A DNA stretch of 50,096 nucleotides, from the NCBI GenBank assembly GCA_024278345.1, contig JAJRTK010000512.1, forward strand, positions 1 through 50,096, written 5' to 3'. Within the stretch, counting starts at the first letter, position 1; every line of letters begins with the position of its first letter. The notes under the pieces were generated by a model. It had not been told where the DNA came from. It worked only from the letters and a program-made list of their open reading frames with translations, and did not search any database. Positions 26 through 24,114 of the stretch are shown in pieces. Origin of the DNA: a bacterium (GTDB lineage Bacteria > CSSED10-310 > JAJRTK01). Both the position numbers and the translations under genes were made by a program.

Positions 26-1570
26 TCAAGCCCGGGTTTCCGCCTCTTTCTGACGACGTTCTCGCTTGATCCGGATCGCACGGATGACAATGATGAAAAA
101 TGCCAATCCAAGGACTACCGCAATCACCACGGAGACCGTGGCCGTCGGATCTCCCGACACCACCAGGAACGGTATCACCTCCGTTTTTCCCTCCACGTCA
201 AGGCTCAGCTCCACGATGTATTCGCCCTCTTGTGGGAAAGTTGCCGACAGCGAGTGAGGTTGTTCGTAGGGAATGACTTCCAGTGAAGAAAGCACTTCCA
301 AGCTTCGCCCGAAGGTGAAAGTCCGCAGGATCCGTACCCGAATCGGCTCCTGATAGGGCTGGCCGCTGTCCCGGTTCTTGATGTAAAAAGCCAAGTTTGC
401 TGTTTCTCCCGGTATCGGGCGACCGGGATAGCTGGTGAGCAAGATGTCATAAGGTCCAGTGGACGCTGGGTATTCCAGGATCGGGACCTGAGGATAGTTC
501 TCCTTGTAGGAGTAGTGGGGAAGCCCTAGGATGTGGTGCGCAGCGGCGGATGCTGGCAAAAGAGCCGAGACCAGGATGACGGCCGCCATCGCGGTCCGTG
601 AGCTTTTTTCGGGCGGGTGGCTCTTCTTGATCCTCGCACGGGAACGACCGGGCAAACCCGCGGTAAAGAGAAGGGCCTTTTCCGGACAATGCCGAAGGCA
701 AACACCGCAGTTATCGCACTCCATTTCGTAGGATTGGAGCACGGGATTCAGCCCCTCTTCGCAGACCGGCTCGCATTCCCGGCATCCGGTGCAAAGATTC
801 GCATCCAGCCTGATGCGAAGAAGTCGGCCGGCGCCGAGCAGGCCGTACAAAGCACCACCAGGGCAGAGGGTCCTGCACCACCAACGGCGAGAAACAAAGA
901 CTTCCACGGCAATGATGATTCCTAGAATCAGGAGCATTCCCGTGAATGCCGTTCCAAAAATCCAGGCGTGGACCAGCCGACTGATTACCGCAGGCGGGTA
1001 GATCAGCGCAAAGAATGGCAATCCCGCCACAGCCGCTACGATCAAGCCGGCTCCCAGGAAGGCATATTTGTTTCCGTGGGAAAATTCCACCTCACCGGGG
1101 GGAAGCTCGGCGAACCTCAGCAGTTTTCGCAGTTTTCCCGCAAGCTCGAACAACACGTAACCCGGGCAGATCCCACTACAGAAGACTCGCCCCAAAAGCA
1201 GCGTGACGAGAACAGGGATCAAGATAGACAAGAGCATGGGGCCGTAGAGAGTCTTCGAGGCCACGACCATTTCCGCGGCTGCCAGCGGATCGCTCAGCTC
1301 CACTCCCCAAAGGCGCATGGACCAGAGCGTTCCTTTGAAACCATCCAGGAACTGCTGTGGTTGCTCCATGGGGGCCACGGTATCGTCAATGAACCGCAAC
1401 ACCTTTCCCTGAAAACCCGCCATGAGTTGATCATCTTCCAAGGCCCGCGCAGCGCGATAATGGGCGTAGAGGCTCAAGTAGACCACAGCGATGACTACGG
1501 CCATCACCGATGCCTGGACCATCCGCCGCAGAATCTGCAACGCCAAGTGTCGAACTTGATAGGCATTCAT
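26..1570 (-). CDS. NapH/CcoG-type membrane polyferredoxin fused to a C-terminal TM-flanked extracytoplasmic domain
   Basis: 514 aa. ATG at 1570 has AGGAGG 7 nt upstream. TM helices, two CX3CP motifs (CSGICPG, CRTLCPGG) and two [4Fe-4S] motifs (CTGCRECEPVC, CDNCGVCLRHCP) match NapH/MauN/CcoG proteins. Residues ~323-514 add a TM helix, a ~135-aa hydrophilic domain starting HHILGLPHY, and a C-terminal TM anchor with a basic tail. Confidence 0.8.
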   Translation of the reverse strand: MNAYQVRHLALQILRRMVQASVMAVVIAVVYLSLYAHYRAARALEDDQLMAGFQGKVLRFIDDTVAPMEQPQQFLDGFKGTLWSMRLWGVELSDPLAAAEMVVASKTLYGPMLLSILIPVLVTLLLGRVFCSGICPGYVLFELAGKLRKLLRFAELPPGEVEFSHGNKYAFLGAGLIVAAVAGLPFFALIYPPAVISRLVHAWIFGTAFTGMLLILGIIIAVEVFVSRRWWCRTLCPGGALYGLLGAGRLLRIRLDANLCTGCRECEPVCEEGLNPVLQSYEMECDNCGVCLRHCPEKALLFTAGLPGRSRARIKKSHPPEKSSRTAMAAVILVSALLPASAAAHHILGLPHYSYKENYPQVPILEYPASTGPYDILLTSYPGRPIPGETANLAFYIKNRDSGQPYQEPIRVRILRTFTFGRSLEVLSSLEVIPYEQPHSLSATFPQEGEYIVELSLDVEGKTEVIPFLVVSGDPTATVSVVIAVVLGLAFFIIVIRAIRIKRERRQKEAETRA

Positions 1571-1585
1571 TCTTGACCTCCTGTC

Positions 1586-2311
1586 TCAAGCCATGACGCG
1601 GGTCGGAACAACCCTGATCGCCGGCTCTCCTCGGACCATCACACGGCAGATCTCTTCGCACATCCCGCATCCGGCACATCGAGCCTCATGGACGGTGGGA
1701 GCCAGAAAGGATCCCGGCTCCAGAGTAATGGCGCGTTCCCGGAGCGGACAAAACATGTAGCACTCGCCGCAAACGCCGCGCCGTTCCGTAGTGGCAACCA
1801 CCTCTGTAGGCTGGCGGCCAAGTTCCATGAGCAACGCCTGTTGCGCACGAATCGCCTTCGCCTTGTGAGACAGGCAGCGATCCTCGAAAAGCTCCACCGA
1901 CGCCATTCGAACCAAAGCCTTCTCTTTTCGTGGAGTGGGAATCAAGGCCGCGGTTGGACAGACCTGGGTACAGTCCATACAAAGGGTGCAGGCTTTGGCC
2001 GCGGGCTTGATGTAGGGGGTATGGTAATGCAGTCCGTTTCTTTCGGTGAAAAATTGAATGGCGCCGACTGTACAGGCATCCTGGCAACGATAACAGCGAA
2101 TGCAGGCGCTCAGGAAAGCCGCTTCCTCAAGAGCGCCAGGAGGCCGGATCAAACTCTTCGGGTTCGAGACCTTCTCTCCAAGTAGAACTGGATAGTCCAG
2201 CTCGCGACGCCTCGACAAAGCATGGACTGTTCCCAAAACCACGGCGAGGCCCGTGGCCTTGAACAGCCATCGGAAAAGCCTTGAGAACAACTGCCGTCGC
2301 GTCCAGGACAT
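1586..2311 (-). CDS. NapG/MauM-like periplasmic poly-[4Fe-4S] ferredoxin (second paralog)
   Basis: 241 aa. Twin-arginine-like N-terminus (TRRQLF) is followed by a hydrophobic segment. RPPGAL..CIRCYRCQDAC plus the clusters CTLCMDCTQVCP, CGECYMFCP and CAGCGMCEEIC. Its start overlaps the upstream stop (TGATG at 2309-2313). Confidence 0.8.
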   Translation of the reverse strand: MSWTRRQLFSRLFRWLFKATGLAVVLGTVHALSRRRELDYPVLLGEKVSNPKSLIRPPGALEEAAFLSACIRCYRCQDACTVGAIQFFTERNGLHYHTPYIKPAAKACTLCMDCTQVCPTAALIPTPRKEKALVRMASVELFEDRCLSHKAKAIRAQQALLMELGRQPTEVVATTERRGVCGECYMFCPLRERAITLEPGSFLAPTVHEARCAGCGMCEEICRVMVRGEPAIRVVPTRVMA

Positions 2312-2913
2312 CAGCCCAGCTCCACCTTGACCCGGATCGCTTGGGGATACCGGATACAGGCACGCTCACAAAGGCCACAACCCACACACTGATCGGCGTG
2401 AACCGTGGGCCGTTCCCACAGCCCCAGGGTGAGGGCTCGGTTGGGAAAAGGGCAGGCCCGGAAGCAAGCGCCACAGCTCCAGCTATTGTACGAATAGCAG
2501 AGCTTGAAGTCGATCTGGGCGATTCCCATGGCGACCTTCGTCTGGATCTCCTCCGCGTTCTTGTGAACGAGCCGCAGCGCACCAGACGGGCAGGCTTCAG
2601 TGCATTTGAGGGTGTCGCCCTTGACGCTCATGCAAAGCATACATGCCTGTCTGCGAGGCTGAATGACGGGAGTCATCTCTTCTCCTGGCCCAGAAGAACG
2701 CCCGGAGGGGAGAATCGCGTTGTTGGGGCAGGCATCAGCGCACCGCTGGCATCGGATGCAACGAGCCAGGAACTCGATCTCAGGCAAGGCCCCAGGCGGC
2801 CGGATGGGATGAGAGCCCGTCTTTTGGGGCACCACAAGGCCTGCTGCCGCGCCGGTCGCAAGGGTCGCGGCTCCGGTCATCAACACGTTTTTGAGGAAAT
2901 TCCTGCGATCCAC
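2311..2913 (-). CDS. NapG/MauM-like periplasmic poly-[4Fe-4S] ferredoxin (first paralog)
   Basis: 200 aa. GTG start at 2913 with GAGAGG upstream. Tat motif DRRNFLK. IRPPGAL..CIRCQRCADACP, CMLC..CTEACP, CGACFRACP and CVGCGLCERAC give four ferredoxin-type clusters. Confidence 0.85.
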   Translation of the reverse strand: MDRRNFLKNVLMTGAATLATGAAAGLVVPQKTGSHPIRPPGALPEIEFLARCIRCQRCADACPNNAILPSGRSSGPGEEMTPVIQPRRQACMLCMSVKGDTLKCTEACPSGALRLVHKNAEEIQTKVAMGIAQIDFKLCYSYNSWSCGACFRACPFPNRALTLGLWERPTVHADQCVGCGLCERACIRYPQAIRVKVELG

Positions 2914-3061
2914 CGCCTCGACCTCTCAGGTGGGCAAAATGCCATGGCACGTCATGCCAGCAGAGGCGAAGCGGTGGCCCCGCCGCCTCACGGTTATTCT
3001 CAGAATTGCTAGACGAGGAGGGAAGATGAAAACAGCCTCCCCTCCTCAATTCGGAAAACGC

Positions 3062-5794
3062 CTATACGCGTTCGATACGGGCCGCGATCTTCTTGTAATC
3101 GACCTGACCGCTCACTGGATCCCAAGCCCGGTGGCTTGTCAGGTTCACGAGCCATCGGTTCTTCCGAGGGTCGGCACTGTCGGCAACGGACAAGTTCCAG
3201 GGGCTGAAGATGTGACCGGGGGGCATTTCGCTTCGAGCAGGACGCACCATACTGTCGAGACCGACGGATACACGGCATTCGTAATGGCCTCGGCGGGTGA
3301 CGATTCGGACCTTGTCGCCATCCTCAAAGCCATAGCGTTCGGCATCTTCTTCGGCCATCTCCAGATACTGTTCGGGAACGAGCTTGAGAGTCGTTGCTCC
3401 TCGGATGGTCTTGGCTGTGTGGAAATGCTCGTAAACGATCCCAAGCGAGAGCCAGAAGGGATATTTGTCCTCTGCCTTGTGGTCTTCGATGTTCTTCTTC
3501 TTGTCGCGATAGACAGCGAGGTCTGGAAGCTCCGGAGGCAGCGCCATATCCCGCGCGAGCTCGAGGAGGCTCTTGCGGCCTTCTTTTTTTGCTGCCGCAA
3601 TGTCATCGATGATGAAAGGTCCTTCGCCAGGTCGATCCTTGTTGCCGTATTCCATGAGCTTGCCAGTGATCTCTTCGATTCTGGAGTAATCCTGCTCGCA
3701 GAGCTTGAACCTGGCTTTCCCATCTTTGTGGCGGAAGGCGCCGTAAGGTTTCCCGGCCCAGCCTTCCTGGCCAAGGTAGCGGCGCGGAGTTCCGCCGGCC
3801 TTGGCGATAACACTCGTGGGCGCCGGCCATTGGATGCCTCGAAGCTGGCGAAGCTGATCGTAGGGAGTGATTCCTTCGGCCTTTTCCACTTCCAGGATAC
3901 CGGTCAAGTCAGCATCTGATCCCTTGGAAGCCGTAAGAATATCGCGAAAGATATCTTGCGGATCGTAGGCCATCAGGCCATTGCCCATCTTGATCGTTTT
4001 CTTGTACGGGAAAATTTTATCGGCATCCAAACCAAGCTTCTTGGCAAGAACCCGCCCTTTGTCGATGGCCATATCCATGTCAGGGCGGCAGTTGGGTGGC
4101 GGGTTTTTCGTTCCGTCGCAGACATAGACCCGACGTTCCGATTGAATGTAGGTGCCTCCAGTCCATTCACCCCAGGTGGCGGCGGGAAACACGACATCGG
4201 CGTACAAGTTGTTCGGGGCGTGCCGGTAGATGTCTTGAACCACCACAAACATCTTCGTCAGGGCCGGTCGAACGAGGGTTTCGCAGTCAGCCATGTGAAT
4301 GTGGGTCGTGTACATCCAGAACATGGCCATGAGATCACCCTTCAGGGCACGTTCCATCATGCCGACGACCATGCCTGGGTTCGGCAAGGCTGTCGTCTGC
4401 GCCAGTCTCTCCCTGGGCACCCGCCAGGCATCGGCGATGTGATCCCTCCATTTTTCGTTTTTCAACGGCTGATTGAAGGGAAGGCGACCCGTGAGACCAC
4501 CCATAAGCCGTTCGCTCATGGCGTTGGGTTGGCCGGTCTGGGAGTGACTGCCACAACCAGGCCGCCCAAGGTTGCCTGTCAACAGATGCAGGTTGATGAG
4601 GCCAATGGTGTTGTGTTGGCCGTGGAGCATCTGATTGTAGCCGATGCCCCAGAAAGTCAAGACGCCTCCCTTGCCGCGTTTTCGGCCCTTGATGCTTGCC
4701 TCGGCCCACTGCTTGGCGATGGTCTCGATGAGCTTCACTGTCACGCGACCGTTATCCAGAAGATCAAGGCGCTTGACGACGGCTTTGGGAGAGTATCGTG
4801 TCTTGACTCCTTCGACGTAATCACGCCAGCCTGTCGTGTTCTTTTCGAGCCATTCCTCGGGCATGCAAGCGTCGGGATACTTGGTCAAAAGAACATGGGC
4901 GATGGCGTTGTGGTAGCTGATATCGCCGTTGAAGGTCTGGAGGTGGTAGCTGTTCCTGGGGTTGATGGCTTCAAGGCCAATGACGGTTCCCGTCCGCCGG
5001 GGATCGACGACCAGTGTGGGGATGTTCTTCTGCTTCTTGTGGTCGGCAGCCCGCCAGAAAAGCACGGGATGCGCTTCTCGGGCGTTGTGCCCCCAAAAAG
5101 TAATAAAATCCGCTTGCTCCACATCCTCATAGCTGGTGGGGGGAGCATCGGACCCGTAGGAATAGAAATACCCCGTTACGGCTGAAGTCATGCACATGCG
5201 GGCATTGGCTTCGATGGAGTTGGAGCCAATGACTCCCTTCATCAAAAGGTTTTCGATCCACTGGGCCTCCATGGTGAGCTGACCCGAGCCATTCAAACCA
5301 ACATAGTTGGGGCCTTTTTCCTTAATAATCGCCGCGATCTTCTCAGCCACGAGCTCTTCGGCTTCTTCATAGGGGACTTCCCTGAACACGTTGGCGTCGA
5401 ATCGCCCTTTCGTTGCCGAAACGTGCCCTTTGAGAGGGTCGCTCATGTCTTTCCGAACGAGCACTTTGGTCAAACGATCACGGTAGATCGGCTCGTGCGC
5501 ATTGAGGCCTTTGATGCACTGAATCCCCCGGTTTGTCGGGTGCTTCTTGTCCGGCACCATGCCGACAACCTTCCCATTTTGGACGCGAATGAGCGTTCCG
5601 CAGCCCACCCCACAATAGGGGCAAGCCGATTGGAGGAGCTCCGGTCCCTTGTTGTTCGAGGCTGGAGGTGCATCTTGCGCTTCAACGAATTCAGCGGAGA
5701 AGAGGTTGGTGGCGGCACAGGCGACACCGCTGGCGGCAGCGGCCTGCATGAACTCTCTGCGATTGAAATTGACTGGCCCTTGCCTACGTGGCAT
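3062..5794 (-). CDS. napA: Tat-exported molybdopterin (Mo-bisPGD) oxidoreductase, NapA-like periplasmic nitrate reductase catalytic subunit
   Basis: 910 aa. Tat signal (NRREFMQAAAASG). N-terminal [4Fe-4S] motif CPYCGVGCG..CIKG. The Mo-ligand region ARMCMTSAV matches NapA/NasA (ARHCMASAV, RLCMSSAV). LTGQPNA and YEHFHT segments align with E. coli NapA as recalled. It is about 80 aa longer than typical NapA, so substrate is not proven. Confidence 0.7.
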   Translation of the reverse strand: MPRRQGPVNFNRREFMQAAAASGVACAATNLFSAEFVEAQDAPPASNNKGPELLQSACPYCGVGCGTLIRVQNGKVVGMVPDKKHPTNRGIQCIKGLNAHEPIYRDRLTKVLVRKDMSDPLKGHVSATKGRFDANVFREVPYEEAEELVAEKIAAIIKEKGPNYVGLNGSGQLTMEAQWIENLLMKGVIGSNSIEANARMCMTSAVTGYFYSYGSDAPPTSYEDVEQADFITFWGHNAREAHPVLFWRAADHKKQKNIPTLVVDPRRTGTVIGLEAINPRNSYHLQTFNGDISYHNAIAHVLLTKYPDACMPEEWLEKNTTGWRDYVEGVKTRYSPKAVVKRLDLLDNGRVTVKLIETIAKQWAEASIKGRKRGKGGVLTFWGIGYNQMLHGQHNTIGLINLHLLTGNLGRPGCGSHSQTGQPNAMSERLMGGLTGRLPFNQPLKNEKWRDHIADAWRVPRERLAQTTALPNPGMVVGMMERALKGDLMAMFWMYTTHIHMADCETLVRPALTKMFVVVQDIYRHAPNNLYADVVFPAATWGEWTGGTYIQSERRVYVCDGTKNPPPNCRPDMDMAIDKGRVLAKKLGLDADKIFPYKKTIKMGNGLMAYDPQDIFRDILTASKGSDADLTGILEVEKAEGITPYDQLRQLRGIQWPAPTSVIAKAGGTPRRYLGQEGWAGKPYGAFRHKDGKARFKLCEQDYSRIEEITGKLMEYGNKDRPGEGPFIIDDIAAAKKEGRKSLLELARDMALPPELPDLAVYRDKKKNIEDHKAEDKYPFWLSLGIVYEHFHTAKTIRGATTLKLVPEQYLEMAEEDAERYGFEDGDKVRIVTRRGHYECRVSVGLDSMVRPARSEMPPGHIFSPWNLSVADSADPRKNRWLVNLTSHRAWDPVSGQVDYKKIAARIERV

Positions 5795-5909
5795 GACGTT
5801 TCTCCCTTGGTTCCCCGAAAGGGGCGATGAACCAGATGCCCCCTAGGGGATTCGGACAAGGCGGTGAAACACCGCTATTTCAGGATCCGGCACGAAGTAG
5901 GCACCCCGT

Positions 5910-8666
5910 TTACCGTCCGGTAGTGAGGCTGACGAGATCTCCTTGTTCGGGCGTTGGCTGTTCGCTCGGCCTGAATGCTTCTGGCGCCCAGGTTCGAATG
6001 AAAGCGACGATATCGTTGATCTCCTTGCCCTCTAGCTCTGAAACTCCGCCCCCCCCGCGGCCGAAGGGGCGCATGGCGGTTCCGAGCCGGCCTCGGACAA
6101 TCGTCGCTTGAAGGAAACCATCGGTAGCGGCAGCCAGGAACTCAGAATTGTTTAGAGCCGGTGCCCATCCTTCGCGACCCATGGGTCCGTGGCAGCCTGA
6201 ACATTGCGTCCCATAGAGCAGTTGACCATTGCCAAGATCCGCACCCGCGACATAGCGGTGAGGGAGCGACGTCGGTGGCCGGCGTGCCCAATCTCTGAGG
6301 TAGGCGACAACGTTGTCGATATCCTCCATGGAAAGCTGCACGTTCCCTTGGCCGCCCAAGCCCATAGCCCGCATTTCTGTACCGTCGCGGCCAAGAACGA
6401 TGGTCGCTATCAAGTAGCCGTCGGCCGCGACTCGAAGGAAATCGCGATTCGCCAGTGCGCTGCCCGTGGCGCCCTGCCCTTCGGTCCCGTGACACGAAGA
6501 GCAAGCCCCTTCATAGACTCTCTTGCCAAGGGCCGCAATCCCTGTGCCCGGGCGACTACCCTCCAGGCGTGGCCGTCCTTCGATTTGCCGGAGATAAGTC
6601 ACGATGTCTTCGATCTCTTCGGCTGTCAGCTCGACGATCCCCTGAAGACCTTTGAGGAAAGGCCGCATCTCAGTGCCATCTCGCCCGTACGAAACCCAGT
6701 GGCGCAACACTGCGTTGCTGACGGAAGCCAGAAAAACAGGATTATTGAGCTGAGGTCCGGTGCCACCTTGGGCGTTGTCCCCGTGGCAGCCTGAACAGGA
6801 GCCGCGGTAAAGCCGCGCTCCGCGCACCCAGTCCCCTCGGGCGACGAAATCCTCGAGCTTCTGTCGGCGATTGTCATTGAGGCTACGCATATAGCCGATG
6901 ATCGCCGCAACATCCTCACCCCTAAGACTCTTCCAGGATGGCATCGCCGTGCCCGGCCGTCCACTGACGATGGCGTCGTAAAGGTAGTCGTCTTCCACCA
7001 CTGCAAGGAGAGAATTGGTTCGGAGCGCTGGACCAATGCCGCCTTCTGCTTTTCGGCCGTGACAGCTCGAGCAATGGCTGCGGAAAAGGCCTTTCCCAAT
7101 ACGGATCTCCCGCCGTGGCAGAGGACCGTTGGCCAGCTTTGTCAAGACTTCTTGTTTACGGGAATTCTCAAGCTGCCAGGACCGGATGTAAGCCAGGAGG
7201 TCACTGACTTGTTGATCCCCAAGATCCTTCCAACTTGGCATGGCGGTGTTGGCCCGACCGAAGACAATAGAGTCTCGTAGGAATTCATCCGAAGCTACGG
7301 CAAGGAAGGAGGGCGAACGAAGAGCCACTCCAATCCCTCCCTGGCCGCGGTTGCCGTGGCACGCCGCACACTGGCCCCGGTAGATGACGCGGCCTTTTCG
7401 GGCATCACCATAGGCAGAGCTGATCCGATCAAGAGCGGGTACTTCCTTTTGCCATGATCGGATATAATCAATGATTCGATCAATCTCTTTGGCGTCAAGA
7501 CCTCCCTGCTCAAGGTTCCATCCACCCATGGAGGTCCCGCTCCGCCCCGTGGCGATGATGCGGCGGAGGTAATCATCGCTGGCCACAGCCAGAGTATCGG
7601 GATGGTTGAGGGAGGGGGTCATAAGCTCTCGCGGCGCATCGACGAGCGTGGGCTCAATCTCCGGATCGCGAACCGTGTTGCCAACGCCATCCTTCCCGTG
7701 GCACGCACTACAAAACATCCTGAACAGGCGCCCGCCATCGACGGATTTTCCCGTGCGCGCCGGTGGTACCGGCGTAAAGGCTGCTGGCTGGCTCTTGCGA
7801 TGCAGGCTGAGCATGTAGGTCGCCAAATCCCGAGCCTGTTCATCATTGAGTTCCAGGTCCGGCATGACGGTCTCAGGTGTGACAGCGGCAGGCTCCTTAA
7901 AATGCTCGTAGAGCCACTGAGCGACGGTCCGCTCGCCCTTGACGTTCTTAAAATCAAAATCGTGTGCGACTTTGTCGCCAACCGCTGTGATCTCAGGCCC
8001 TAGGCTTCCGCCACGTCCTCGGTACTCATGGCACCCCAAACAGCCAGATTCTAAGGTGAGCTTCTTGCCTTTCCCCACAACCTCCGCCCCGGGGACGGTC
8101 CAGTCGAGTTCCGACTGGTCCAGGGGTTCTGGTGGAGCTTCCCGGGCATAGAGGTCGTTTTGGGATCCATAGAGGTCATTTTCGTAATGGCACCGCCCGC
8201 AGCTTGTATAAATTTGATCACCCCGGAGCAATGGAGTTTCCCAGTGGGGGACGTCACCGTGGGCATCGGCTATCTTGGTTGCACGGCCCTGCCCATCGTG
8301 ACAAACGGTGCATCCGAATTTGTCCACTGGATGCTGCCGAAGCCATTTTCCCGGATGCGCTTTAAGAGGTTGTTTGGCGTTGGACATGCCTGGATGCTCA
8401 ACTCCCAGATGGCAAGTCATGCATCGATCCACGCGGCCCAGTTCGGATAGGAAGAGCTGCCGGAACTCGATCTCCATTGCCTCCGCTGACGCTCGAGTCG
8501 TGTCGCTCTTCGCTTGCGCAACGAGGGTCTCCCGATAGTTGGCCTGGATTTGTCGCCATTCGCCCGCGAGGTTTTCCTCGAAAGCGGCCAGCATCATCAA
8601 CACGAGCGAAGCAAGGGAGGAAACCAATAAAATGATCTTCAGTTGCCGAACCTGTTTGTACTCCAT
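5910..8666 (-). CDS. membrane-anchored decahaem cytochrome c (three or four N-terminal haems plus six tandem class-I cytochrome c domains)
   Basis: 918 aa. N-terminal TM anchor (IILLVSSLASLVLMMLAAF). Ten CxxCH motifs (CMTCH, CTVCH, CGRCH, CLGCH, CSACH, CAACH, CSSCH, CSGCH, CSSCH, CSGCH). The last six lie in six tandem ~85-100-aa repeats, each with a distal Met (e.g. GTAMPSW, GTEMRPF). Confidence 0.9.
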   Translation of the reverse strand: MEYKQVRQLKIILLVSSLASLVLMMLAAFEENLAGEWRQIQANYRETLVAQAKSDTTRASAEAMEIEFRQLFLSELGRVDRCMTCHLGVEHPGMSNAKQPLKAHPGKWLRQHPVDKFGCTVCHDGQGRATKIADAHGDVPHWETPLLRGDQIYTSCGRCHYENDLYGSQNDLYAREAPPEPLDQSELDWTVPGAEVVGKGKKLTLESGCLGCHEYRGRGGSLGPEITAVGDKVAHDFDFKNVKGERTVAQWLYEHFKEPAAVTPETVMPDLELNDEQARDLATYMLSLHRKSQPAAFTPVPPARTGKSVDGGRLFRMFCSACHGKDGVGNTVRDPEIEPTLVDAPRELMTPSLNHPDTLAVASDDYLRRIIATGRSGTSMGGWNLEQGGLDAKEIDRIIDYIRSWQKEVPALDRISSAYGDARKGRVIYRGQCAACHGNRGQGGIGVALRSPSFLAVASDEFLRDSIVFGRANTAMPSWKDLGDQQVSDLLAYIRSWQLENSRKQEVLTKLANGPLPRREIRIGKGLFRSHCSSCHGRKAEGGIGPALRTNSLLAVVEDDYLYDAIVSGRPGTAMPSWKSLRGEDVAAIIGYMRSLNDNRRQKLEDFVARGDWVRGARLYRGSCSGCHGDNAQGGTGPQLNNPVFLASVSNAVLRHWVSYGRDGTEMRPFLKGLQGIVELTAEEIEDIVTYLRQIEGRPRLEGSRPGTGIAALGKRVYEGACSSCHGTEGQGATGSALANRDFLRVAADGYLIATIVLGRDGTEMRAMGLGGQGNVQLSMEDIDNVVAYLRDWARRPPTSLPHRYVAGADLGNGQLLYGTQCSGCHGPMGREGWAPALNNSEFLAAATDGFLQATIVRGRLGTAMRPFGRGGGGVSELEGKEINDIVAFIRTWAPEAFRPSEQPTPEQGDLVSLTTGR

Positions 8667-8673
8667 GATGCCC

Positions 8674-10302
8674 TCAATGGGTCGGCCACTGGCTAGGCCA
8701 CCAGTAGAAGTCCCAGTTCGGCCCGCGGTGGACGGTGGCGAAGTAGGTCAGCACCACGAACGCGACAATGAAACAGGTGAAAAGGGCGATGGCACTCATC
8801 CGAGTCGAGCGGGTCTTCCCGATGATCCCCAACGACCAAACGATGAAAGCGGTAACGAGCACGGTTCCTGGATTTACAAACGTGATAATGATCTGCGGGA
8901 TTTCCAGAAACCAATTTCTAAGCCATCCAAAATTGACGGTAAAGGTGAGAAGCGCCACGGTGAATAAGAAGGAAAACAGGGCAGTTTGCCAAGCGACTCG
9001 GATGCCTTCTTGCCCGCAAATCCAGCGACCAGGTATTTCGCGCTCCCGATCAAGATAGGGAATCAGCGCCAACCCCAAGATGACTACCGCGGGGATCCCC
9101 ACGCCTCCCATGAAGGCCGAATAACTGACCATTTCCTGGAGTCCCAGGAAATACCACGGCGCCTTGGCGGGGTTCTCAGGGATTCCGGGGTTTGCAAGCT
9201 CCTTTAGCGGTGCGTCGAAGAAGTAGCCCAAAAAGAGCATGACTGCCGTTGTCAACATTGCCAAGGCCGCAATGGCATAGAGGGCATTGGGGTAGGCCGG
9301 AATCGTATTTCGCAGCTCCTTGCCCACGGCAGGTGTCCGCCCCTTCATAAGGGCCATGAGCCCCCAAGTCCGAGTCGATGGATCTCCCTGCTTGGGTGTC
9401 ATGGCTGTCATCGACGGGGCCTCGACATCTTTCCCCGTTGGCCGTGGGGGCACGGTCTCTGCCGGCTTGGCCAGCCCCCCGTCCTTGCGAATGCGCCATA
9501 TATGCACCGCGGCAAATAGGGTCAGAACCAGTGGCAAAACCACCACGTGGAGCACGTAGAAGCGCACCAGTGCTTCCTGCCCCACGTAGTGGGCTCCCAA
9601 CAAGAGTTCCTTCTGCATTCCCCCAATATCTAGGCTGGCTGTAATCCCCAGGGCATCCGTCAGCTCCCGTGGGGATTGAGCGATGTTGGCTCCAATGGTG
9701 CAAGCCCAAAAAGCCAGCTGATCCCAGGGCAGTAGATAACCCGTGAAACTCAGTCCGAGGGTCAAAACGAACAGAGCCATACCAATGACCCAGTTGAACT
9801 CCCGAGGTTTTTTGTAAGCTGCCGTATAAAAAACCCGCGCCATGTGGAGAAACACACATAGGACCATCCCGTGGGCCGCCCAGCGGTGGATGTTTCGGAT
9901 GAAGCGCCCGGACGGAACAACGTAGATGATATCCTTCATGGAGTCGTACGCCAGATCGACGGCCGGTTTGTAGTAAACCATCAAAAGGATGCCCGTGAAG
10001 GTCAGAATGCCAAACAGGACCAGGAGAATGATGCCAAGCCCCATCGTCGCCGAAAACTTTAGCGATCTCAGGTGGACGCGGACCGACATGACATGAAGAA
10101 AAAAATTGCTAAAGACCGTTTGGGAACGAGCCCGATCCGATGTCGGCACACCATGACGCACGACGGAATCGCGAGCGGTATCCGGTAGTGCCTTGAGGTT
10201 TGCCAGGAATGCAGGCAAACCTCCTCGTTCCTCCAGGGCCGGGGAGACCTCAACCGGTGGCTGCCTCCCGTTGATCGATTTTTCGACGGGTGTCGTCGTC
10301 AT
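8674..10302 (-). CDS. cytochrome b, fused b6 / subunit-IV type with extra C-terminal TM helices
   Basis: Maximal ORF 8674..10371 trimmed to ATG 10302 (CAGGAGA 7 nt upstream, 19 nt after the Rieske stop). [15 protein letters not shown] (H-x13-H), [24 protein letters not shown] and [17 protein letters not shown] (H-x14-H, b6-like). Followed by the subunit-IV-like motif PWYFLGLQE. Confidence 0.85.
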
Positions 10303-10321
10303 GATGAGTCTCCTGAAGCCT

Positions 10322-10822
10322 TCAAACCGGAAGCCGCGTGCCGAGAGGAACGTTGATCGCGGTGTCCACAAGGAGCTGCCCGTCCGGAGACAGCCCCATC
10401 GCTATCCAATGGAGTGGCGTTGGCGCAGGTCCCTGGAGCACCTTGCCATCAGGCGCGAAAATCGAACCGTGACAGGGGCACCGAAAAATCCCGTCGGCGC
10501 TGCGGCCAGCAATACATCCCAGGTGTGTACAGATGGATGAAATGCTGTAAAGACCCTTGGCGTCATGAAAAACCCACAACCTAAGTTCCGGGAGATGGGT
10601 CACGGAACCCTTGGGATAGCGCTCGGGATGACCGATCTTTACGCGGGAATTCGATTCGGGAAAAACGGATGGCATCGGCAGCCGGAGGGAGCCAATGAGG
10701 GCGGCTCCGAAAGCTGCTACGGCGGACCAGATCGCCGCTAGTCCCAAGAAGTCTCGACGGGACGCGGGTTCCTGGAACCGGGGACTTTCTTCCAGTGCAG
10801 AGTTCCGAGACAGTTTGCTCAC
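10322..10822 (-). CDS. Rieske [2Fe-2S] iron-sulfur protein, Tat-dependent
   Basis: Maximal ORF trimmed to GTG 10822 (GGGAGG 8 nt upstream; GTGA overlap with the upstream stop at 10819-10821). Tat motif SRRDFLG followed by a TM segment. Rieske boxes CTHLGC and CPCHGS. Confidence 0.85.
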
Positions 10823-12828
10823 GATCCGACCTCCCGCCAGGGACTTTCGTAATGGACTCTCTCCATAGTGATTGCATTGACAGGGCACCGTTCCGCGCAA
10901 AGCGCACAGCGGATGCATCGAGACTCGTCTTTGATGATGGCCGAGCCTTGGGGCAACTCTTCGGGCGCATAGCGAGCCTCGAGAAGTTCCTGTATCTGCT
11001 CCGTCGCCTCCAGTGCCTCCACGGGAACAAGCCTAAGGCAAAGCTCGGGGCAAACATCGGCGCACCCGCCACACAGGATGCAGACGTCGGAGTCAAAGAC
11101 GGTATTGACGCCGCAATCGAAACAGCGACCGGCTTCCCGCATGGCGTCGGCTGGCTCATAGCCAAGCTCTACTACCGCCGTGTGCGAGGCCTTTCTCTTA
11201 TCCGGATCGAGTGCTGGCACTGGCACGCGGCCTTGCTTTTCGTAGTCAGCTTCCCGTTCGTACCCCAATATCGGTACATGGATCATCACCTGCTCAGGTT
11301 TGATTTCTAGACCCGTCAAATAACGATGCACCGATCTGGCAGCCCGTTTGCCCGTGGCGACCGCGTGGATGAGAAGACCCGGTCCCGTGGCGATGTCGCC
11401 AGCCAAGAAAACGTCCTCGGCACTGGTGGTCAACCGCACGGGGTCCACATCGATCAAGCCTCGCTCCGTAAACCGGATATCTCCGCCGGCCGGGATGAAG
11501 CTCAAGTCAGGTTGTTGCCCAATTGCCCAAAGGACGGTGTCAGCCTCGATGGTCGTCAACCCATCTCCAAAAATAGGGGAGAACCGACCGTTTTCATCGA
11601 AGACCCGGAGTACTTCTTGGAAGAGAACGCTTTGGACCTTTCCCGCCTCGTCCAGCAAAATCTCCTTTGGACCCATGCGGTGGTGTCTGACAATGCCCTC
11701 TTCATCACCCTCGATGATTTCCACGTCATCCGCCGGCATTTCTTCAAGGCTTTCCAAGGAGACCATGTTGACTTCCCGAACACTGGGATGGCGCAAAGCG
11801 CTCCTAGCTACGTCAATGTCCACCTGGCGCACGACGGAACGGGCTACGTCATAGGCAACATTTCCACCGCCAATGACCACGATGCGCTGACCAAGCTCCG
11901 CCGGCTCGCTGAGGGCAACACTCCTCAAGAACTCAACTCCACCCAGAACCCCTTCTCCCTTCGACCCCGGAATTGACAATCGGCGGGAGTACTTCGCACC
12001 AACGGCAATGATCGTCGCGGCGAATTCGTTCCGAAGCTGTGCCAAGGAAAGGTCACCCCCAACCTGCACATTGCATTCGAAATGAACGCCTAGGGCTTCG
12101 ATCAACTCGACTTCCGCCGTCACAAGATCTCGAGGCAGGCGGTAAGAAGGAATCCCCAAGACGAGCATCCCCGCCGGAATGGGTTCCATCTCGAAAACCG
12201 TGGGGCGAAATCCCATGAGCGCAAGATCGTGGGCTGCGGCCAACCCCGCCGGCCCAGCTCCCACGATGGCAACTTTGTGGCCATCCAGCTTGGGAGGGTC
12301 GATCCGTCGAAGGAGCCTTCGAAGGCTTGTCAACTCTTCTTTGCCGCGAACTTGGCGCTGGCGTCCGAAATGTAAGACCCGCTGGAGGATGTCCAACGGC
12401 CTTTGGCTCCGGGTTTCGGGGCCGTATAGGTTTGTCACAAACCTCTTCAGTGCTCGAATCGAAACCGCTTGGTCCACGCTTCCTCGGCGGCAGGCAGCTT
12501 CGCAAGGTGCGCCGCAAACTCGTCCACAAATACTGGCGAGCGGATTGGGGCCTCGCGCGATGAGGTAAGCTGCCTCGAAGTTGCCCTGGGCGATCGCCCG
12601 TACATAGCCCCGGGCATCAGTATTGACGGGACAGGCATCGTGGCATTTGATTTGCTTGGTCCAGTAGGCTGCATCCGGAACCTCAACGCGAAGCCTCTCA
12701 CCAGCCGGCTCCGCCACCCCATTCTTGCACATGCTAGCCCGCTCCGGATTCTTTGCTGCACCCCCCCAGGTTCCCGCGCCGATGGGGAACACCGGTTCAA
12801 GGAGCCAACAAACGGAAAAAACGACCAT
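10819..12828 (-). CDS. GltD/NfnB/SudA-like NAD(P)-binding iron-sulfur flavoprotein with C-terminal 2x[4Fe-4S] ferredoxin domain
   Basis: 669 aa. N-terminal Cys motifs (KCHDACP, CGRVCGAPCEAAC). Two dinucleotide-binding motifs (VAIVGAGPAGLAAA, VVIGGGNVAYDVA). C-terminal CILCGGCADVCP and CIRCALCAERCP. No signal peptide. ATG 12828 lies about 50 nt downstream of a TTGACA box; an alternative start is ATG 12732. Confidence 0.8.
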   Translation of the reverse strand: MVVFSVCWLLEPVFPIGAGTWGGAAKNPERASMCKNGVAEPAGERLRVEVPDAAYWTKQIKCHDACPVNTDARGYVRAIAQGNFEAAYLIARGPNPLASICGRVCGAPCEAACRRGSVDQAVSIRALKRFVTNLYGPETRSQRPLDILQRVLHFGRQRQVRGKEELTSLRRLLRRIDPPKLDGHKVAIVGAGPAGLAAAHDLALMGFRPTVFEMEPIPAGMLVLGIPSYRLPRDLVTAEVELIEALGVHFECNVQVGGDLSLAQLRNEFAATIIAVGAKYSRRLSIPGSKGEGVLGGVEFLRSVALSEPAELGQRIVVIGGGNVAYDVARSVVRQVDIDVARSALRHPSVREVNMVSLESLEEMPADDVEIIEGDEEGIVRHHRMGPKEILLDEAGKVQSVLFQEVLRVFDENGRFSPIFGDGLTTIEADTVLWAIGQQPDLSFIPAGGDIRFTERGLIDVDPVRLTTSAEDVFLAGDIATGPGLLIHAVATGKRAARSVHRYLTGLEIKPEQVMIHVPILGYEREADYEKQGRVPVPALDPDKRKASHTAVVELGYEPADAMREAGRCFDCGVNTVFDSDVCILCGGCADVCPELCLRLVPVEALEATEQIQELLEARYAPEELPQGSAIIKDESRCIRCALCAERCPVNAITMERVHYESPWREVGS

Positions 12829-12849
12829 GAATTCTCATTGGCAATAGAT

Positions 12850-12878
12850 TCCATAAAACAATCCAAAACATCTGTCAA
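12850..12878 (-). promoter_or_regulatory. candidate sigma70-type promoter of the respiratory operon
   Basis: The minus strand reads TTGACA (12878-12873), a 17-nt spacer, then TATGGA (12855-12850), about 20 nt upstream of ATG 12828. The -10 is imperfect. Prediction by eye only. Confidence 0.3.
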
Positions 12879-12912
12879 GCCCTGCAACTCACTGGCAGAT
12901 ATAAAAAAACTA

Positions 12913-12950
12913 TTTCGCAAAGAAAATGCATGATCATTTTGCACGAGAAA
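12913..12950. promoter_or_regulatory. imperfect 38-bp palindrome in the divergent intergenic region (candidate Rrf2-family operator)
   Basis: TTTCgcaaagAAAATG-catgat-CATTTTgcacgaGAAA. The core inverted repeat is AAAATG (12923-12928) / CATTTT (12935-12940). The arm AAAATGCATGA resembles the E. coli NsrR half-site AAnATGCATTT as I recall it. Confidence 0.3.
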
Positions 12951-13025
12951 CTCGAACCCTGCACAGGCCACGCCCGAGATCCAGCCCTTGCACTTTGAGC
13001 ACCAATCACCTATTGAGTATGCGAT

Positions 13026-13472
13026 ATGGGTGTCTTACTTTCTAAAACAGCACAATACGCAATTCGAGCACTGGTCGATCTGGCGCTGCAGTCTAGCGAG
13101 CGAGCCACGCCAATCCGGACTATCGCCGAACGTACGAATATTCCTTACCCGTTCCTGGCCAAACTGGTGGTCCAGCTTGTCCAGTCTCGTCTGGTGTCGT
13201 CGCACAAAGGGCCCGGAGGGGGTATCCGCCTGATGCGGCCCGCCAGCAAGATCAGCGTCATTGAGATCATCACGGCGATGGAGGGGGTCAACGCATTTGA
13301 AGCTTGCTTCCTGGGGCTCAAGCACTGTGGCGAGGAAGATCCATGCCCCATGCACGACTATTGGGCCGGCTTCAAGAGCCAGCTCCAGTCGAAATTGGTG
13401 GAGACTTCGCTTGCGGATTTGGCTGAGCTGGAACGAAAGCAGCAAGCGATCAATGCTGGCTCGGCAGACTGA
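13026..13472 (+). CDS. Rrf2-family transcriptional regulator with Fe-S cluster ligand motif (IscR/NsrR-like)
   Basis: 148 aa. Rrf2 winged helix (LSKTAQYAIRALVDLA, IRTIAERTNIPYPFLAKLVVQL, SHKGPGGGIRL). C-x6-C-x5-C-x2-H motif (CFLGLKHCGEEDPCPMH). No SD upstream of the ATG, and a TTGCAC box lies at 12988-12993, so the mRNA may have a very short leader or none. Confidence 0.9.
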   Translation: MGVLLSKTAQYAIRALVDLALQSSERATPIRTIAERTNIPYPFLAKLVVQLVQSRLVSSHKGPGGGIRLMRPASKISVIEIITAMEGVNAFEACFLGLKHCGEEDPCPMHDYWAGFKSQLQSKLVETSLADLAELERKQQAINAGSAD

Positions 13473-18328: not shown

Positions 18329-21300
18329 CTAGACCCGGCGTCGGATCATGGGGGGGACCAGCGGAGTCTTCTCCGTCAGGATTCCCTCCATCTGAATGGT
18401 CCTTGCCATTCCCCGTTCCACGGCATTCACAAGGTAGGGCCGGAGGAGGTTGGGTGGCAAGATATGGTCGATGGAGCCCACACGCTGGGCTCGTTGCACC
18501 GTATGGATGGCGTCGAACTCTTCGGCCACTTCGCCGAGCTTTTCGGCGTGGACCTTTTTCCGGAGGTCGTCGAGCTGTGTTCTGAGGCGGTGTTTGTGGG
18601 GTTCCTTGGCTTCGGCAAGCTCTTGTTCCAGCCGTTTGACTCGTTCATCAAGTCCGACTCGTGCCTGCACTTCCCGAGCAAAGACGACGGCTGCCGCCGG
18701 TGCGCCGCCGATGACGGAGGCATAGCTTCCTTCCAAGGCGGCGACTTCGACACTTTCGTTCAGGGCCTTGGAAAAGACGACGTAGGCGCCGCCGTGGTAT
18801 CTGGAAATCACGCAAAAGACGACGGGGCCGCGGAAGTTGACGATGGCCCTGCCGATTTCGGCTCCGTGCTCCAACTGAAGCTCTCGCATGGATTCCGGCG
18901 AGCCGTCGAAACCGGACAGGTTTGCCAGGATGACGACGGGCCGAAGCCCGCTAGAGGAGTTGATGGCTCGTGCGACCTTCTTTGAAGAGAGGGGAAAGAG
19001 AGTTCCCGCGGTCCAGCGGTCAGGACCATCGGCCGGTGCGTAGCCAAGGCGGCTGAGGTTTTTCGATTCGATCCCTATGAGGCAGATGGAGCGTCCTCCA
19101 AGCCTTGCCGACCAGACCACGGCGGTTTCGGCATCGCGCATGGCGGCCCAACGTTCCATGGGCGTGCAGTCCTGATCGACCACGGAGGCCATGACGGCCC
19201 GGATCTCGAAAGGCCGCTTGCGGGCGGGGTTCTTCTTCGCTGAGAAGATATCGGCCACTTGTTCGAATTCGGCTGTCCCATGAAGGTGGACTCCGGCATC
19301 CCGCTCGGTGGGATCGGCTGTTTCAAAGCGCCTTGGAAATCTTTCCCCGGAAGCCACGTAGGTATACTCGTAATGGCGGAAGAGGAGGTGGCAGGCGTTG
19401 GTGAAATCTTCCGCCCAAAACTGGGCCTGGCCATTGGGTCCCATGATGTGCTCGTATCCGCCGATCCCCTGATTCGTGTCGGCGGAGACTCCGCCGGAGT
19501 AGTCCAAGGCCTTCTTGCCCGTGAGGAGCATGGCCCCTTCGGGGATCATGATCAAGATTCCCCGGGTGTGCATAAGCATGGTGGCTTCGGCGTTCCAGTA
19601 GGACTGTGCCCCCACATTGACGGCATGGGCGACAATATTGACTTCGCCGCCATCGCGGGTGAATTCGATGAGCCGCCGGAGGACGCGGGCAGTCCAGTCC
19701 AGGTTCTCCGTGCCGCTATCCATGGCGATCTTGGCCCCTGCTGAGACGGAGAACCATTCTACGGGTACGCCGAGATTTTGAGCCAGATCGATAGCTTGAA
19801 TAATCCGGCGGCACTCGGGTTCCGCCAAGGATCCCATGGACTTGCTGGGGTCCCCAAGGATCACCACGCGAGTGATTCCGTCGGGGTAGCGTTTGGTGAA
19901 GTTTTTCAACAGGCCCACAACCAGATTGGCTTCATTGAGGCCATAGGGGCGCTGTACCGGAACGAGCCGCTGAGCGTAGTCGAGATCGTATTCCACAAAT
20001 TCGCCGGGCGGGAATTCTGAACGGACGCCTTCCTTGGCTGGCGTGAGCATCCGGATGATTTCGTAGGGATAGATGAGCCCCCGCTGGCGCATGCGGACAA
20101 CTTTCCGCTCGTACTCGGAAAGGGGGCGAATGAGCTCATGCGTAGGCTCGTCGATATGGAGGACCAGTTGGGCTCCGGTGGGATTGGACATCCCGAGGAT
20201 CTTGCTCCGCTCGACGCCCAGTTCCTTGTCGAGAATACGGACGTGCATGGTGATCTTTTCCAAGCCGAGCTCGGCGGTGGAAGCGCCGACGCGGCGAATG
20301 ACTGTCCTGAGATCTTCGGGTTCGAGTTCTAGTCTGGGCCAGACGTAGAGGATCACGCGATTCCAGTGGAGCCGCTTCCTGAGGGTGCGATGGGATTGGA
20401 ACATCCGGATGCCAGCCAACGCCTCGGAGACGGTCCTTTCCAGGTAGGGAAGCTGCACGACGTTCCCGCGGGAATCGCGGACGGGCGTGAGATCCCAGAC
20501 CTCGGCGAAGGCGAAGATCCTTTCGTCCCTGGGATTGTCCCGGGCTACGCCGTGGAAGAGATAGAGGTCTTCCACCGAGGGCAGGCGCTGGATCTTGAAG
20601 TTCCCCAGGCGCCAGAGCTCCAGGCGTTTGCCCATCATGGGGTGAAGTCCCCGATAGAGCTTTTCTTCCCAGTATCCCTTGTCCGAGGGCCGGAAAGTGT
20701 ATTGCTCCATCCCCTCGCGGCCATCGTGGAGGCTAGGGCCGGCGACGGCGAAGAAGACGCGGCGAAGTGGTTCGGGGAAGGACTCGTCCAAGAGCTTGGT
20801 CAGCTCTTTGGAGCGTCGCTCCTGATCGCAATGACCGCCCTCGTCCCAGACGTAAAAATCGATGAGCACCTGCCGCTCATCCGCGATGCTCTCCGCGAGG
20901 TCGCGGAGAGCGCGAGCCGCCTGGGGAAGCTCCTGATAGCCCACGTGGAGTGACAAGAGCAAGAGCTGCCGGTCGTCGTATTCGTATTCGGCCGTTCCAA
21001 CGCTCCATCGACCGGCGGAGTAGAAACGGATGTTTTCCAGGTTCCGGATGCAATAGTAACGGCGCATGATCACTTCGAGCATCCGATCCCGCATCTCGGG
21101 GGAGGCCTGGTGGAATCGGCGGCTGAAGACGCCAACGATCTGTTGCGGACAATCGACGAGCTGCTGGAGGAGGCTTTCGCGTTCGTCATCGGATGGGCAG
21201 GCGATGAGGCGTTGGAGGTGGCTTTCCATTCGGGCGAAAGTTTCCTGACGCACTTCGTCGAAGAGGGGTTGCTCGAAAATGCGGTAGCGCACTTCTCGCG

Positions 21301-23944: not shown

Positions 23945-24114
23945 CCCGGTCCCTCGATTCCGCCCCAGATTCGACACACTCTCCGCCAGTCTGTAGCGGT
24001 GGCTGATTCAACGGTCTCACCGGTCTCCTCGCCGGTAGAAAGACCTATTAACACGATGGCGGGACTTGCGTCACCCGCAGAGGGGATAATCCCGTTTTCG
24101 GCGGGCCACGCCGC

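Follow-up and report, generated by a model that had tools for sequence, protein, structure and literature searches.

What kind of respiratory system is encoded where genes for a Rieske/cytochrome b complex, a decahaem cytochrome c and an FAD/NAD(P) flavoprotein stand in one row with those for an exported molybdoenzyme and NapG- and NapH-like proteins? The question is raised by a contig of 50,096 nucleotides (JAJRTK010000512.1, GenBank assembly GCA_024278345.1) from a bacterium of the GTDB lineage CSSED10-310; JAJRTK01, and this whole stretch is referred to below as the window. An earlier note, made from the sequence alone, had described eight open reading frames (ORFs), running on the minus strand from 12828 to 26, as an eight-gene unit in which two independent quinol-oxidising modules serve a NapA-type enzyme. 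Comparison with related genomes gives a somewhat different answer. At least nine genes make up a respiratory operon of which the window holds the first eight, and this operon is real, widely conserved and apparently undescribed.

An operon conserved across several phyla

One genome per species was searched for relatives of the molybdenum (Mo) enzyme encoded by gene 5, and 80 loci were fetched and examined. A relative is encoded in at least 131 species genomes. Genes 1-4 lie colinear upstream of it in 47 of the 55 loci with enough flank, and genes 6-8 together with a ninth gene follow it in every locus with enough downstream DNA (47 of 47); all nine genes occur in order in 33 loci. The window's own gene order thus recurs in public genomes of several phyla, an arrangement far beyond chance. 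The carriers are chiefly Planctomycetota (Phycisphaerae, Pirellulales, Planctomycetales and Gemmatales), joined by Wallbacteria, Myxococcota, Latescibacterota, Eiseniibacteriota, "Deltaproteobacteria" metagenome-assembled genomes (MAGs) and the cultured Deferrisoma camini. Since the window ends 25 nt past gene 8, the ninth gene is simply cut off, and the supposed unit of eight genes is an operon severed by the window edge.

In other respects the earlier description of the locus was accurate. The eight co-oriented ORFs and their junctions agree with the coordinates and the sequence, and Pfam and NCBIfam profile searches of each protein confirmed all eight gene identities. Genes 1 and 2 share a GTGA stop/start overlap at 10819-10822; gene 3 (ATG at 10302) follows after a 19-nt gap and gene 4 (start at 8666) after one of 7 nt. 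Further downstream, genes 6 and 7 meet in an ATGA-type overlap at 2311, and gene 8 (start at 1570) lies beyond a 15-nt gap. Most of the start codons have a Shine-Dalgarno-like run of purines before them. The Mo enzyme gene is flanked by longer spacers, 115 nt (5795-5909) on one side and 148 nt (2914-3061) on the other, and a site scan found no intrinsic-terminator-like or promoter-like site on the coding (minus) strand in either of them.

A Rieske/cytochrome b module of the anammox type

Gene 1 (10819..12828) encodes a GltD/NfnB-like FAD/NAD(P) iron-sulfur flavoprotein, with the Pfam domains Pyr_redox_2, Fer4_20 (N-terminal) and Fer4, two C-terminal [4Fe-4S] motifs and a score of 405 bits to NCBIfam PRK12771. 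Its best relatives in the PDB are NfnB-type modules and GltD (9bov, 8oh5, 9n5u, 4ylf, 5jca), and hydropathy analysis revealed neither a signal peptide nor a convincing transmembrane (TM) helix. Because the orthologues are 610-640 aa long, the true start is probably Met33, at about 12732. Gene 2 (10322..10822, with a GTG start) encodes a membrane-anchored Rieske [2Fe-2S] protein recognised by Pfam Rieske and predicted from its motif to be exported by twin-arginine translocation (Tat). It carries the motifs CTHLGC...CPCHGS and a Ser/Phe pair as in Kustd1480. When searched against the whole of the PDB, its best solved relatives were 9rk4 (Kuste4569, 91.6 bits) and 9rk3 (Kustd1480, 82.5 bits), codes that are confirmed in the structural report (PMC12954380). 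Every other solved structure scored 54 bits or less, the top b6f Rieske protein standing at 54.

The product of gene 3 (8674..10302) is a fusion, identified by Pfam Cytochrome_B and by its PDB matches, of a b6-like four-helix domain to a subunit-IV-like domain in which hydropathy places five C-terminal helices. It has four bis-His ligands for haems bL and bH at the b6 spacing of 14 and 15 residues and lacks the Cys that binds haem ci in b6; its best PDB matches are cytochrome b6. The protein also scores 230 bits to NCBIfam ExtP and 53 bits to ExtQ. A relation to the Geobacter Ext complexes was considered on these grounds and rejected, as genes 1, 2 and 4 match no Ext model above noise. Gene 4 (5910..8666) encodes a membrane-anchored, periplasmic decahaem cytochrome c. 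It contains exactly 10 CxxCH motifs, an N-terminal TM helix (residues 11-29), a c7-like trihaem part and seven class-I monohaem domains, in keeping with its Pfam matches to Cytochrome_C7 and to 6-7 Cytochrome_CBB3/Cytochrom_C domains.

Judged by these homologies, genes 1-4 appear to match an anammox-type Rieske/b6-subunit IV complex with an NAD(P) flavoprotein. Such a likeness had been suggested for this locus, and the suggestion proved sound. Two of the three Kuenenia complexes, Kustd1480-85 and Kuste4569-74, carry a putative NAD(P) oxidoreductase and multihaem cytochromes (PMC12954380), and the Rieske matches fit. The window module shares with the Kuenenia stuttgartiensis complexes (Kartal et al. 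2013; Hauser et al. 2025, PMC12954380) the type of Rieske protein, the b6-like four-helix cytochrome b, the five-helix subunit-IV-like part, the replacement of cytochrome f/c1 by a multihaem cytochrome c, and a cytoplasmic FAD/NAD(P) iron-sulfur oxidoreductase in the cluster, which in the window is coupled to the Rieske gene by the GTGA overlap. The direct sequence comparison with Kuenenia covers the two Rieske chains in the PDB. The anammox complexes are further predicted to hold an extra b haem between monomers.

The differences are also instructive. In the window, cytochrome b and subunit IV are fused and the multihaem protein has ten haems, as against six or eight in Kuenenia. The partner enzyme is a Tat-exported molybdoenzyme with NapG/NapH-like proteins, whereas in Kuenenia it is a hydroxylamine oxidoreductase (HAO)-like octahaem protein; moreover, the window type occurs outside the anammox bacteria, with a cultured isolate among its carriers. 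The two Kuenenia complexes have been proposed to bifurcate quinol electrons in such a way that a high-potential acceptor drives NAD(P)+ reduction, a scheme that is hypothetical, and for Kustd1480-85 no acceptor reaction has yet been proposed (PMC12954380). In the window operon, an acceptor enzyme is encoded within the same unit as the Rieske/cytochrome b module.

The molybdoenzyme and its NapG- and NapH-like partners

Gene 5 (3062..5794) encodes a Tat-exported enzyme of 910 aa of the Mo/W-bis(pyranopterin guanine dinucleotide) type, with the Pfam domains Molybdop_Fe4S4, Molybdopterin and Molydop_binding. Its N-terminal [4Fe-4S] motif, CPYCGVGCG...QCIKG, aligns with those of NapA, Nas and formate dehydrogenase (Fdh) and is followed by the Lys. 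The Tat motif is RREFMQ, in which R12 and R13 are invariant in 36 family members; the match to TIGR01409 is weak. Relatives at 74-82% identity form more than 100 clusters across phyla. Outside this family, just four full-length proteins of a library clustered at 50% identity were more than 39% identical to gene 5. No plasmid-annotated NapA, Nas or FdhF is more than about 35% identical to it, and over longer alignments the figure is about 30%.

The catalytic subunit had at first been taken for NapA, and this assignment fails. Gene 5 scores 307.8 bits to the NapA model NF010055 against a cut-off of 904 and 288.7 to TIGR01706 against 930.6; its score to the Fdh-alpha model (303.6) is level with those to NapA, and neither it nor any of its nearest relatives that were scanned reaches a curated family cut-off. 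A neighbour-joining tree (200 bootstraps) was built with references from annotated records, a frameshifted Salmonella plasmid napA being left out. The NapA clade of 17 sequences, which includes the monomeric type, received 100% support, and the gene 5 family fell outside it. The gene 5 family and its few sisters grouped with 79% support; the deeper nodes were without resolution.

The active site gives the other half of the picture, with residues numbered as in Desulfovibrio desulfuricans NapA and carried over via the PDB alignment. Cys140, Met141, Asp155, Arg354 and the FeS-pterin Lys are kept in the gene 5 family, in Nas and in 16 of the 17 members of the NapA clade; the first four are the same in the members from the window, from D. 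camini and from Elusimicrobiota. Position 156 is Ala or Thr in the family (Ala in the window), Glu in 16 of the 17 NapA sequences and variable in Nas, and position 308 is Ile in the family, Met in 16 of the 17 and Gln or Met in Nas. Phylogeny thus removes the enzyme from NapA, and the active-site residues that nitrate reductases have in common are retained. Because of the low NapA scores, the tree placement and the residues common to Nap and Nas, gene 5 is best described as encoding a putative nitrate-reductase-like enzyme of its own clade, not NapA.

Formate dehydrogenase was weighed because of its equal model score and set aside on the active site, which in gene 5 reads C-M with TGQPNAMSER. 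In the Fdh references the Mo ligand position is C/U-H and the Arg region is GQNNVQG...C, with Gly and no Arg, a pattern absent from gene 5. The Sb(III) oxidase NaoABC and arsenite oxidase were considered as NapA-like oxidases that have a Rieske partner; they were rejected for their different architecture (a DmsB-like plus an enzyme-bound Rieske subunit) and call for caution on the substrate only. An AlphaFold2 model of gene 5 from the 36-sequence alignment was of low confidence (mean predicted local distance difference test score 55.6, predicted template modelling score 0.51), because the aligned family is more than 75% identical.

The usual partners of NapA are missing, as had been noted from the start. 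In tblastn searches, E. coli NapB, NapC and NapD had no homologue anywhere in the window; a cytoplasmic NapF-type gene was not recognisable, E. coli NapF matching only the NapG-like genes 6 and 7. At the position of the gene for NapB stands that of the decahaem cytochrome, and the idea that this protein takes the place of NapB is made plausible by two sister operons. One, in Microaerobacter geothermalis, encodes an enzyme (P0122, WP_236403631) 52% identical to gene 5, in the order mobA, moeA, mobB, moaDE, tatC, a napF-like gene, tatA, dihaem c, Mo enzyme, NapG-like and NapH-like. The other, in a Deltaproteobacteria MAG (P0121, 54% identity), consists of dihaem c, Mo enzyme, NapH-like and NapG-like genes. 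Both share with the window the enzyme lineage, the Cys-Met/Asp/Arg residues, a class-I cytochrome c gene upstream and NapG-/NapH-like genes downstream. They differ in having two haems instead of ten and a single NapG/NapH pair, and in lacking the Rieske/cytochrome b module, the flavoprotein and a YHS protein. The dihaem proteins are 32-37% identical to class-I domain pairs of the window decahaem. Given this homology and the gene position, the decahaem protein looks like an expanded, membrane-anchored form of the enzyme's usual cytochrome donor.

Downstream of the enzyme, gene 6 (2311..2913) encodes a Tat-exported NapG-like ferredoxin with the motif RRNFLK, and the translationally coupled gene 7 (1586..2311) encodes a second. 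Their NCBIfam NapG scores are 129 and 92 bits against a cut-off of 269; they share 36% and 34% identity with E. coli NapG and 36% with each other, and each has an RR motif (RRQLF in gene 7) and four [4Fe-4S] Cys clusters. Gene 8 (26..1570) encodes a NapH-like membrane iron-sulfur protein of 514 aa that scores 131 bits to NCBIfam NapH against a cut-off of 234 and is 31% identical to E. coli NapH. Residues 1-305 comprise four TM helices, two CxxxCP and two cytoplasmic [4Fe-4S] motifs. Residues ~310-514 (window 26-646) add a periplasmic domain of some 130 aa framed by two TM helices; this extension carries a motif, HH..G.PHYSY, conserved in 68 orthologues, and matches no Pfam or PDB family. Its layout recalls CcoG/FixG-type proteins, and no match to FixG_C was found.

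The ninth gene, located in D. camini at L001:15623-17608, encodes a protein of about 660 aa with a signal anchor (followed in D. camini by a Met/His-rich stretch), two YHS domains, a NapH-like CxxCP/Fe-S core and extra helices. The C-terminal helices contain near-invariant histidines (FHGLTMTP, FYHLSHNLEHL, GHVYSLW) that could bind b haems, and this C-terminal extension has no Pfam or PDB match. PDB sequence searches with gene 8 and the ninth protein matched generic ferredoxin motifs only; none of the hits was a solved NapH-like structure. From the Methanoperedens nar cluster, a NapH-like protein carrying five additional helices has been reported (PMC4683180).

How these partners relate to the Rieske/cytochrome b module is illuminated by loci where the latter has been exchanged. 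In Elusimicrobiota and a few other loci, genes 5-9 are kept and genes 1-4 are missing. In Elusimicrobiota, gene 9 (and an extra ferredoxin gene, if present) is followed instead by genes for a QrcA/ActA-like multihaem cytochrome c, a fused QrcB/QrcC (ActB)-like protein and an NrfD-like protein (L068:17941-22739, L067:10420-11898, L065:17631-22426). The Mo enzyme would appear, then, to be served by interchangeable quinone-linked cytochrome c modules. Since the NapG/NapH-like genes are always kept and the cytochrome c module is swapped, the NapGH-type proteins look like obligatory partners of the enzyme and not an alternative quinol dehydrogenase, and the claim of two independent quinol-oxidising modules becomes doubtful. 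The quinol dehydrogenase role of canonical NapGH has also been questioned, and Nap of Campylobacter jejuni and Wolinella succinogenes requires both Qcr and NapGH (PMC6195509). Together with the swap, this requirement makes the two modules look complementary, not redundant. Upstream, the Elusimicrobiota loci encode MobA, MoaA, an Rrf2 regulator and an alginate-export-type outer-membrane porin.

A converse arrangement is seen in the Deltaproteobacteria MAG JACRCV010000088 (L095:3880-12043), where flavoprotein, Rieske, cytochrome b, separate subunit IV and multihaem cytochrome c genes are followed by one for a 680-aa relative of the Mo enzyme, with no NapG/NapH genes. This relative, 40% identical to gene 5, has lost Met141 and Arg354 together with the C-terminal domain, and it may serve as a structural subunit without catalytic activity, as in alternative complex III (ACIII) or Qrc. 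The arrangement suggests that the link between the enzyme lineage and the Rieske/cytochrome b module is not confined to one family.

Partial precedents exist for the pairing of such modules. The NapC-less nap systems of Epsilonproteobacteria (PMC6195509) likewise combine a periplasmic nitrate-reductase-type enzyme with NapG-/NapH-like proteins and a Rieske/cytochrome b complex in the pathway. There, however, qcr and nap are separate loci and the enzyme is canonical NapA with NapB and NapD, whereas the window has a single operon, an enzyme of another clade, duplicates of both NapG and NapH, and a complex with an NAD(P) flavoprotein. The nap cluster of Caldithrix abyssi (Kublanov et al. 2017, PMC5317091) comes closer, with Rieske/cytochrome b genes inside it, napGH, no napB or napC, and a multihaem cytochrome proposed as the periplasmic wire. 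It differs in its tetrahaem NapM, NapF and adjacent epsilon-Hao and in lacking the NAD(P) flavoprotein, the decahaem cytochrome and a second NapG/NapH pair. Clade II nos (Hein et al. 2017, as cited in PMC6195509) offers, to the extent of that citation, a further parallel in a periplasmic reductase dependent on a NapGH-type module and Rieske/cytochrome bc, the enzyme there being a copper protein and not a molybdoenzyme.

Conserved neighbours and local sequence features bear on how the operon might be controlled. Recurring neighbours are an Rrf2 regulator (30 loci), a further NapG/NapF-like ferredoxin (17), a hemerythrin/RIC-like protein (10) and genes for molybdenum cofactor (Moco) biosynthesis. 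In the window, the Rrf2-family gene (13026-13472, plus strand) was found by tblastn with the Rrf2 neighbour of the related locus L040 (E = 9e-18), and its product has a putative Fe-S ligand motif, Cx6Cx5C(PMH). It is divergent here; of the 30 related loci with such a gene, 26 carry it upstream in the same orientation as the operon. Such a set of neighbours, with an Fe-S-type Rrf2 protein, hemerythrin/RIC-like proteins and Moco genes, suits a molybdoenzyme under redox or N-oxide regulation. The AT-rich region between gene 1 and the Rrf2 gene (12829..13025) is the probable promoter and operator region; a TTGACA-N17-TATGGA sequence was found there by eye on the minus strand, a site at which the promoter scan made no call. 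Within the operon, fold energy points to a strong hairpin in the 148-nt spacer between genes 5 and 6, GAGGAGGGGAGG...CCUCCCUUCCUC (12-13 bp, with a G/A-rich arm; -62.1 kcal/mol, z = -2.8). As it has no U tract, it is possibly an mRNA processing or stability element and not a terminator, and it could tune the ratio of catalytic subunit to accessory proteins.

Proposed electron flow, rival readings and implications

With somewhat better than even confidence, the operon is read here as a respiratory system in which quinol supports the reduction of nitrate or of a comparable high-potential oxyanion, possibly bifurcating to NAD(P)+. Its core would be genes 5-9, that is, the Mo enzyme, two NapG-like polyferredoxins and two NapH-like membrane proteins, to which genes 1-4 would add a second module with the decahaem cytochrome c outside and the NfnB/GltD-like flavoprotein inside. 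(Mena)quinol would be oxidised at the Qo site of the Rieske/cytochrome b complex. The high-potential electron would pass from the Rieske protein to the decahaem cytochrome, then probably through the NapG-like proteins to the [4Fe-4S] cluster of the enzyme and on to Mo. The second electron would return over the b haems to quinone in an energy-conserving Q cycle or, alternatively, might travel from the b haems through Fe-S clusters and FAD to reduce NAD(P)+, a bifurcation as proposed for the anammox complexes. Published energetics favour such a scheme, with potentials of -70 mV for menaquinone, about +400 mV for the high-potential acceptor and -320 mV for NAD(P) (PMC12954380). That one supercomplex bifurcates menaquinol in this manner, so that the downhill electron to the nitrate reductase pays for uphill NAD(P)H formation without proton-motive force, is a tentative and rather doubtful proposal.

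Several points weigh against a nitrate-respiring, quinol-oxidising system. D. camini is said to be incapable of growth on nitrate. The flanks examined contain no nir, nrf, nor or nos gene, and the Rrf2 orthologue matches no specific subfamily, with IscR, NsrR and RirA all below cut-off (NsrR at 40 bits). The enzyme family stands outside the NapA clade, and its replaced residues at 156 and 308 are the NapA-specific E156 and M308. Since the cultured M. geothermalis, which respires nitrate and nitrite, carries narGHJI as well, its sister enzyme need not be the nitrate reductase. NaoA, an Sb(III) oxidase that clusters near NapA, indicates that NapA-like enzymes may have other substrates (PMC11521347), and the Qrc-type module of Elusimicrobiota could in principle run toward quinone. 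Finally, while gene content, homologies, synteny, active-site residues and the module swap are established here, the substrate, the direction of electron flow and the formation of a complex are inferred.

Much of this evidence is shared with the idea of a different substrate, be it chlorate, selenate, iodate or the like for a reductase, or nitrite, arsenite or antimonite for an oxidase whose electrons would enter the cytochrome c chain and be driven in reverse through the Rieske/cytochrome b or Qrc-like module to quinone and NAD(P)+. A clade apart from both NapA and Nas, with its deep placement without resolution and without E156 and M308, leaves room for this, as do the precedent of NaoA as a NapA-like oxidase and the resemblance of the Elusimicrobiota module to a menaquinone-reducing complex. 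It is nevertheless quite unlikely, because the Cys-Met/Asp/Arg signature is invariant in the family and common to all nitrate reductases aligned, the sister operons are plain nap-like ones (one of them from a nitrate respirer), NapG/NapH partners are known only with reductases (Nap and Nos), and the Aio and Nao oxidases have different partners and an enzyme-bound Rieske small subunit. A proton-motive chain from NAD(P)H to nitrate, in which the flavoprotein is the input and FAD and its Fe-S clusters feed an n-side haem or quinone site, has been likened here to ferredoxin/FNR in cyclic flow at b6f and is judged unlikely. The b6-type architecture of gene 3 would suit it, but the missing haem ci Cys is the marker of the stromal input site in b6. 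The carriers seem to be for the most part heterotrophs, Planctomycetota and the like, which make NAD(P)H rather than lack it, and GltD, NfnB and dihydropyrimidine dehydrogenase, all of the gene 1 family, are reversible NAD(P)H enzymes; against this, the Rieske potentials of +303 and +335 mV fit NAD(P)+ reduction, and dedicated NADH dehydrogenases serve the forward reaction better (Hauser et al., PMC12954380).

It is highly improbable, by comparison with the quinol-dependent respiratory system proposed above, that genes 1-4 and genes 5-8 are independent neighbouring units, a general bc-type complex and a NapGH-dependent reductase with a promoter in the 115-nt gap. Internal promoters could fit in both gaps, but these have no terminator-like or promoter-like site, and adjacency and order hold in 47 of 55 loci of several phyla. 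The separability of the modules is real, in that Elusimicrobiota have genes 5-9 without genes 1-4 and L095 has genes 1-4 without NapGH-like genes; yet even in L095 the gene for cytochrome c is immediately followed by one for a degenerate relative of the Mo subunit, and the decahaem gene occupies the exact place of the sister dihaem donor and is homologous to it.

Other genes in the window also deserve mention. A single-chain acetyl-CoA carboxylase of 1882 aa (18329-23977, minus strand) unites biotin carboxylase, biotin carboxyl carrier protein, ACC central and carboxyltransferase domains, a eukaryote-like form as against the usual bacterial multi-subunit enzyme. On the plus strand follow two very large proteins, one of 1226 aa in which a C-terminal MscS channel domain is the only recognisable part (24268-27948) and one of 1253 aa that joins a Ser/Thr kinase with an AAA/STAND ATPase and TPR repeats (31517-35278), and then an ATP sulfurylase-APS (adenosine 5'-phosphosulfate) kinase fusion with an N-terminal PUA-like domain, which places sulfate activation in a single polypeptide (35490-37235).

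The view that the combination is undescribed has held, as a literature search turned up no paper on this cluster. What that search did return were partial precedents, namely the C. abyssi nap cluster and Qcr-dependent Nap. The component types are all familiar, and for two-thirds of the logic there are precedents. An Oslofjord tunnel MAG survey, several of whose MAGs are among the examined loci, scored "NapAB" and noted an ACIII-like cluster downstream of Nap, and does not describe the arrangement of Rieske/cytochrome b, flavoprotein, decahaem and NapG/NapH genes. MAG surveys label the gene 5 clade "NapAB" or generically, and the curated NapA models miss it. The nitrate-reduction potential of Planctomycetota-rich anoxic habitats may therefore be mis-scored.

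The comparative pattern also bears on the role of NapGH, and it has a wider meaning for the Rieske/cytochrome b complexes themselves. Complexes bearing an NAD(P) oxidoreductase are not known to have been discussed for any but anammox bacteria, where their long-debated role is hard to test, owing to slow growth and genetic intractability. The same type of complex is here hard-wired to a defined enzyme in many ordinary anaerobes, D. camini among them, and this makes the bifurcation hypothesis testable. If the supercomplex reading were true, a bifurcating device would be widespread beyond anammox bacteria and present in the cultivable D. camini.

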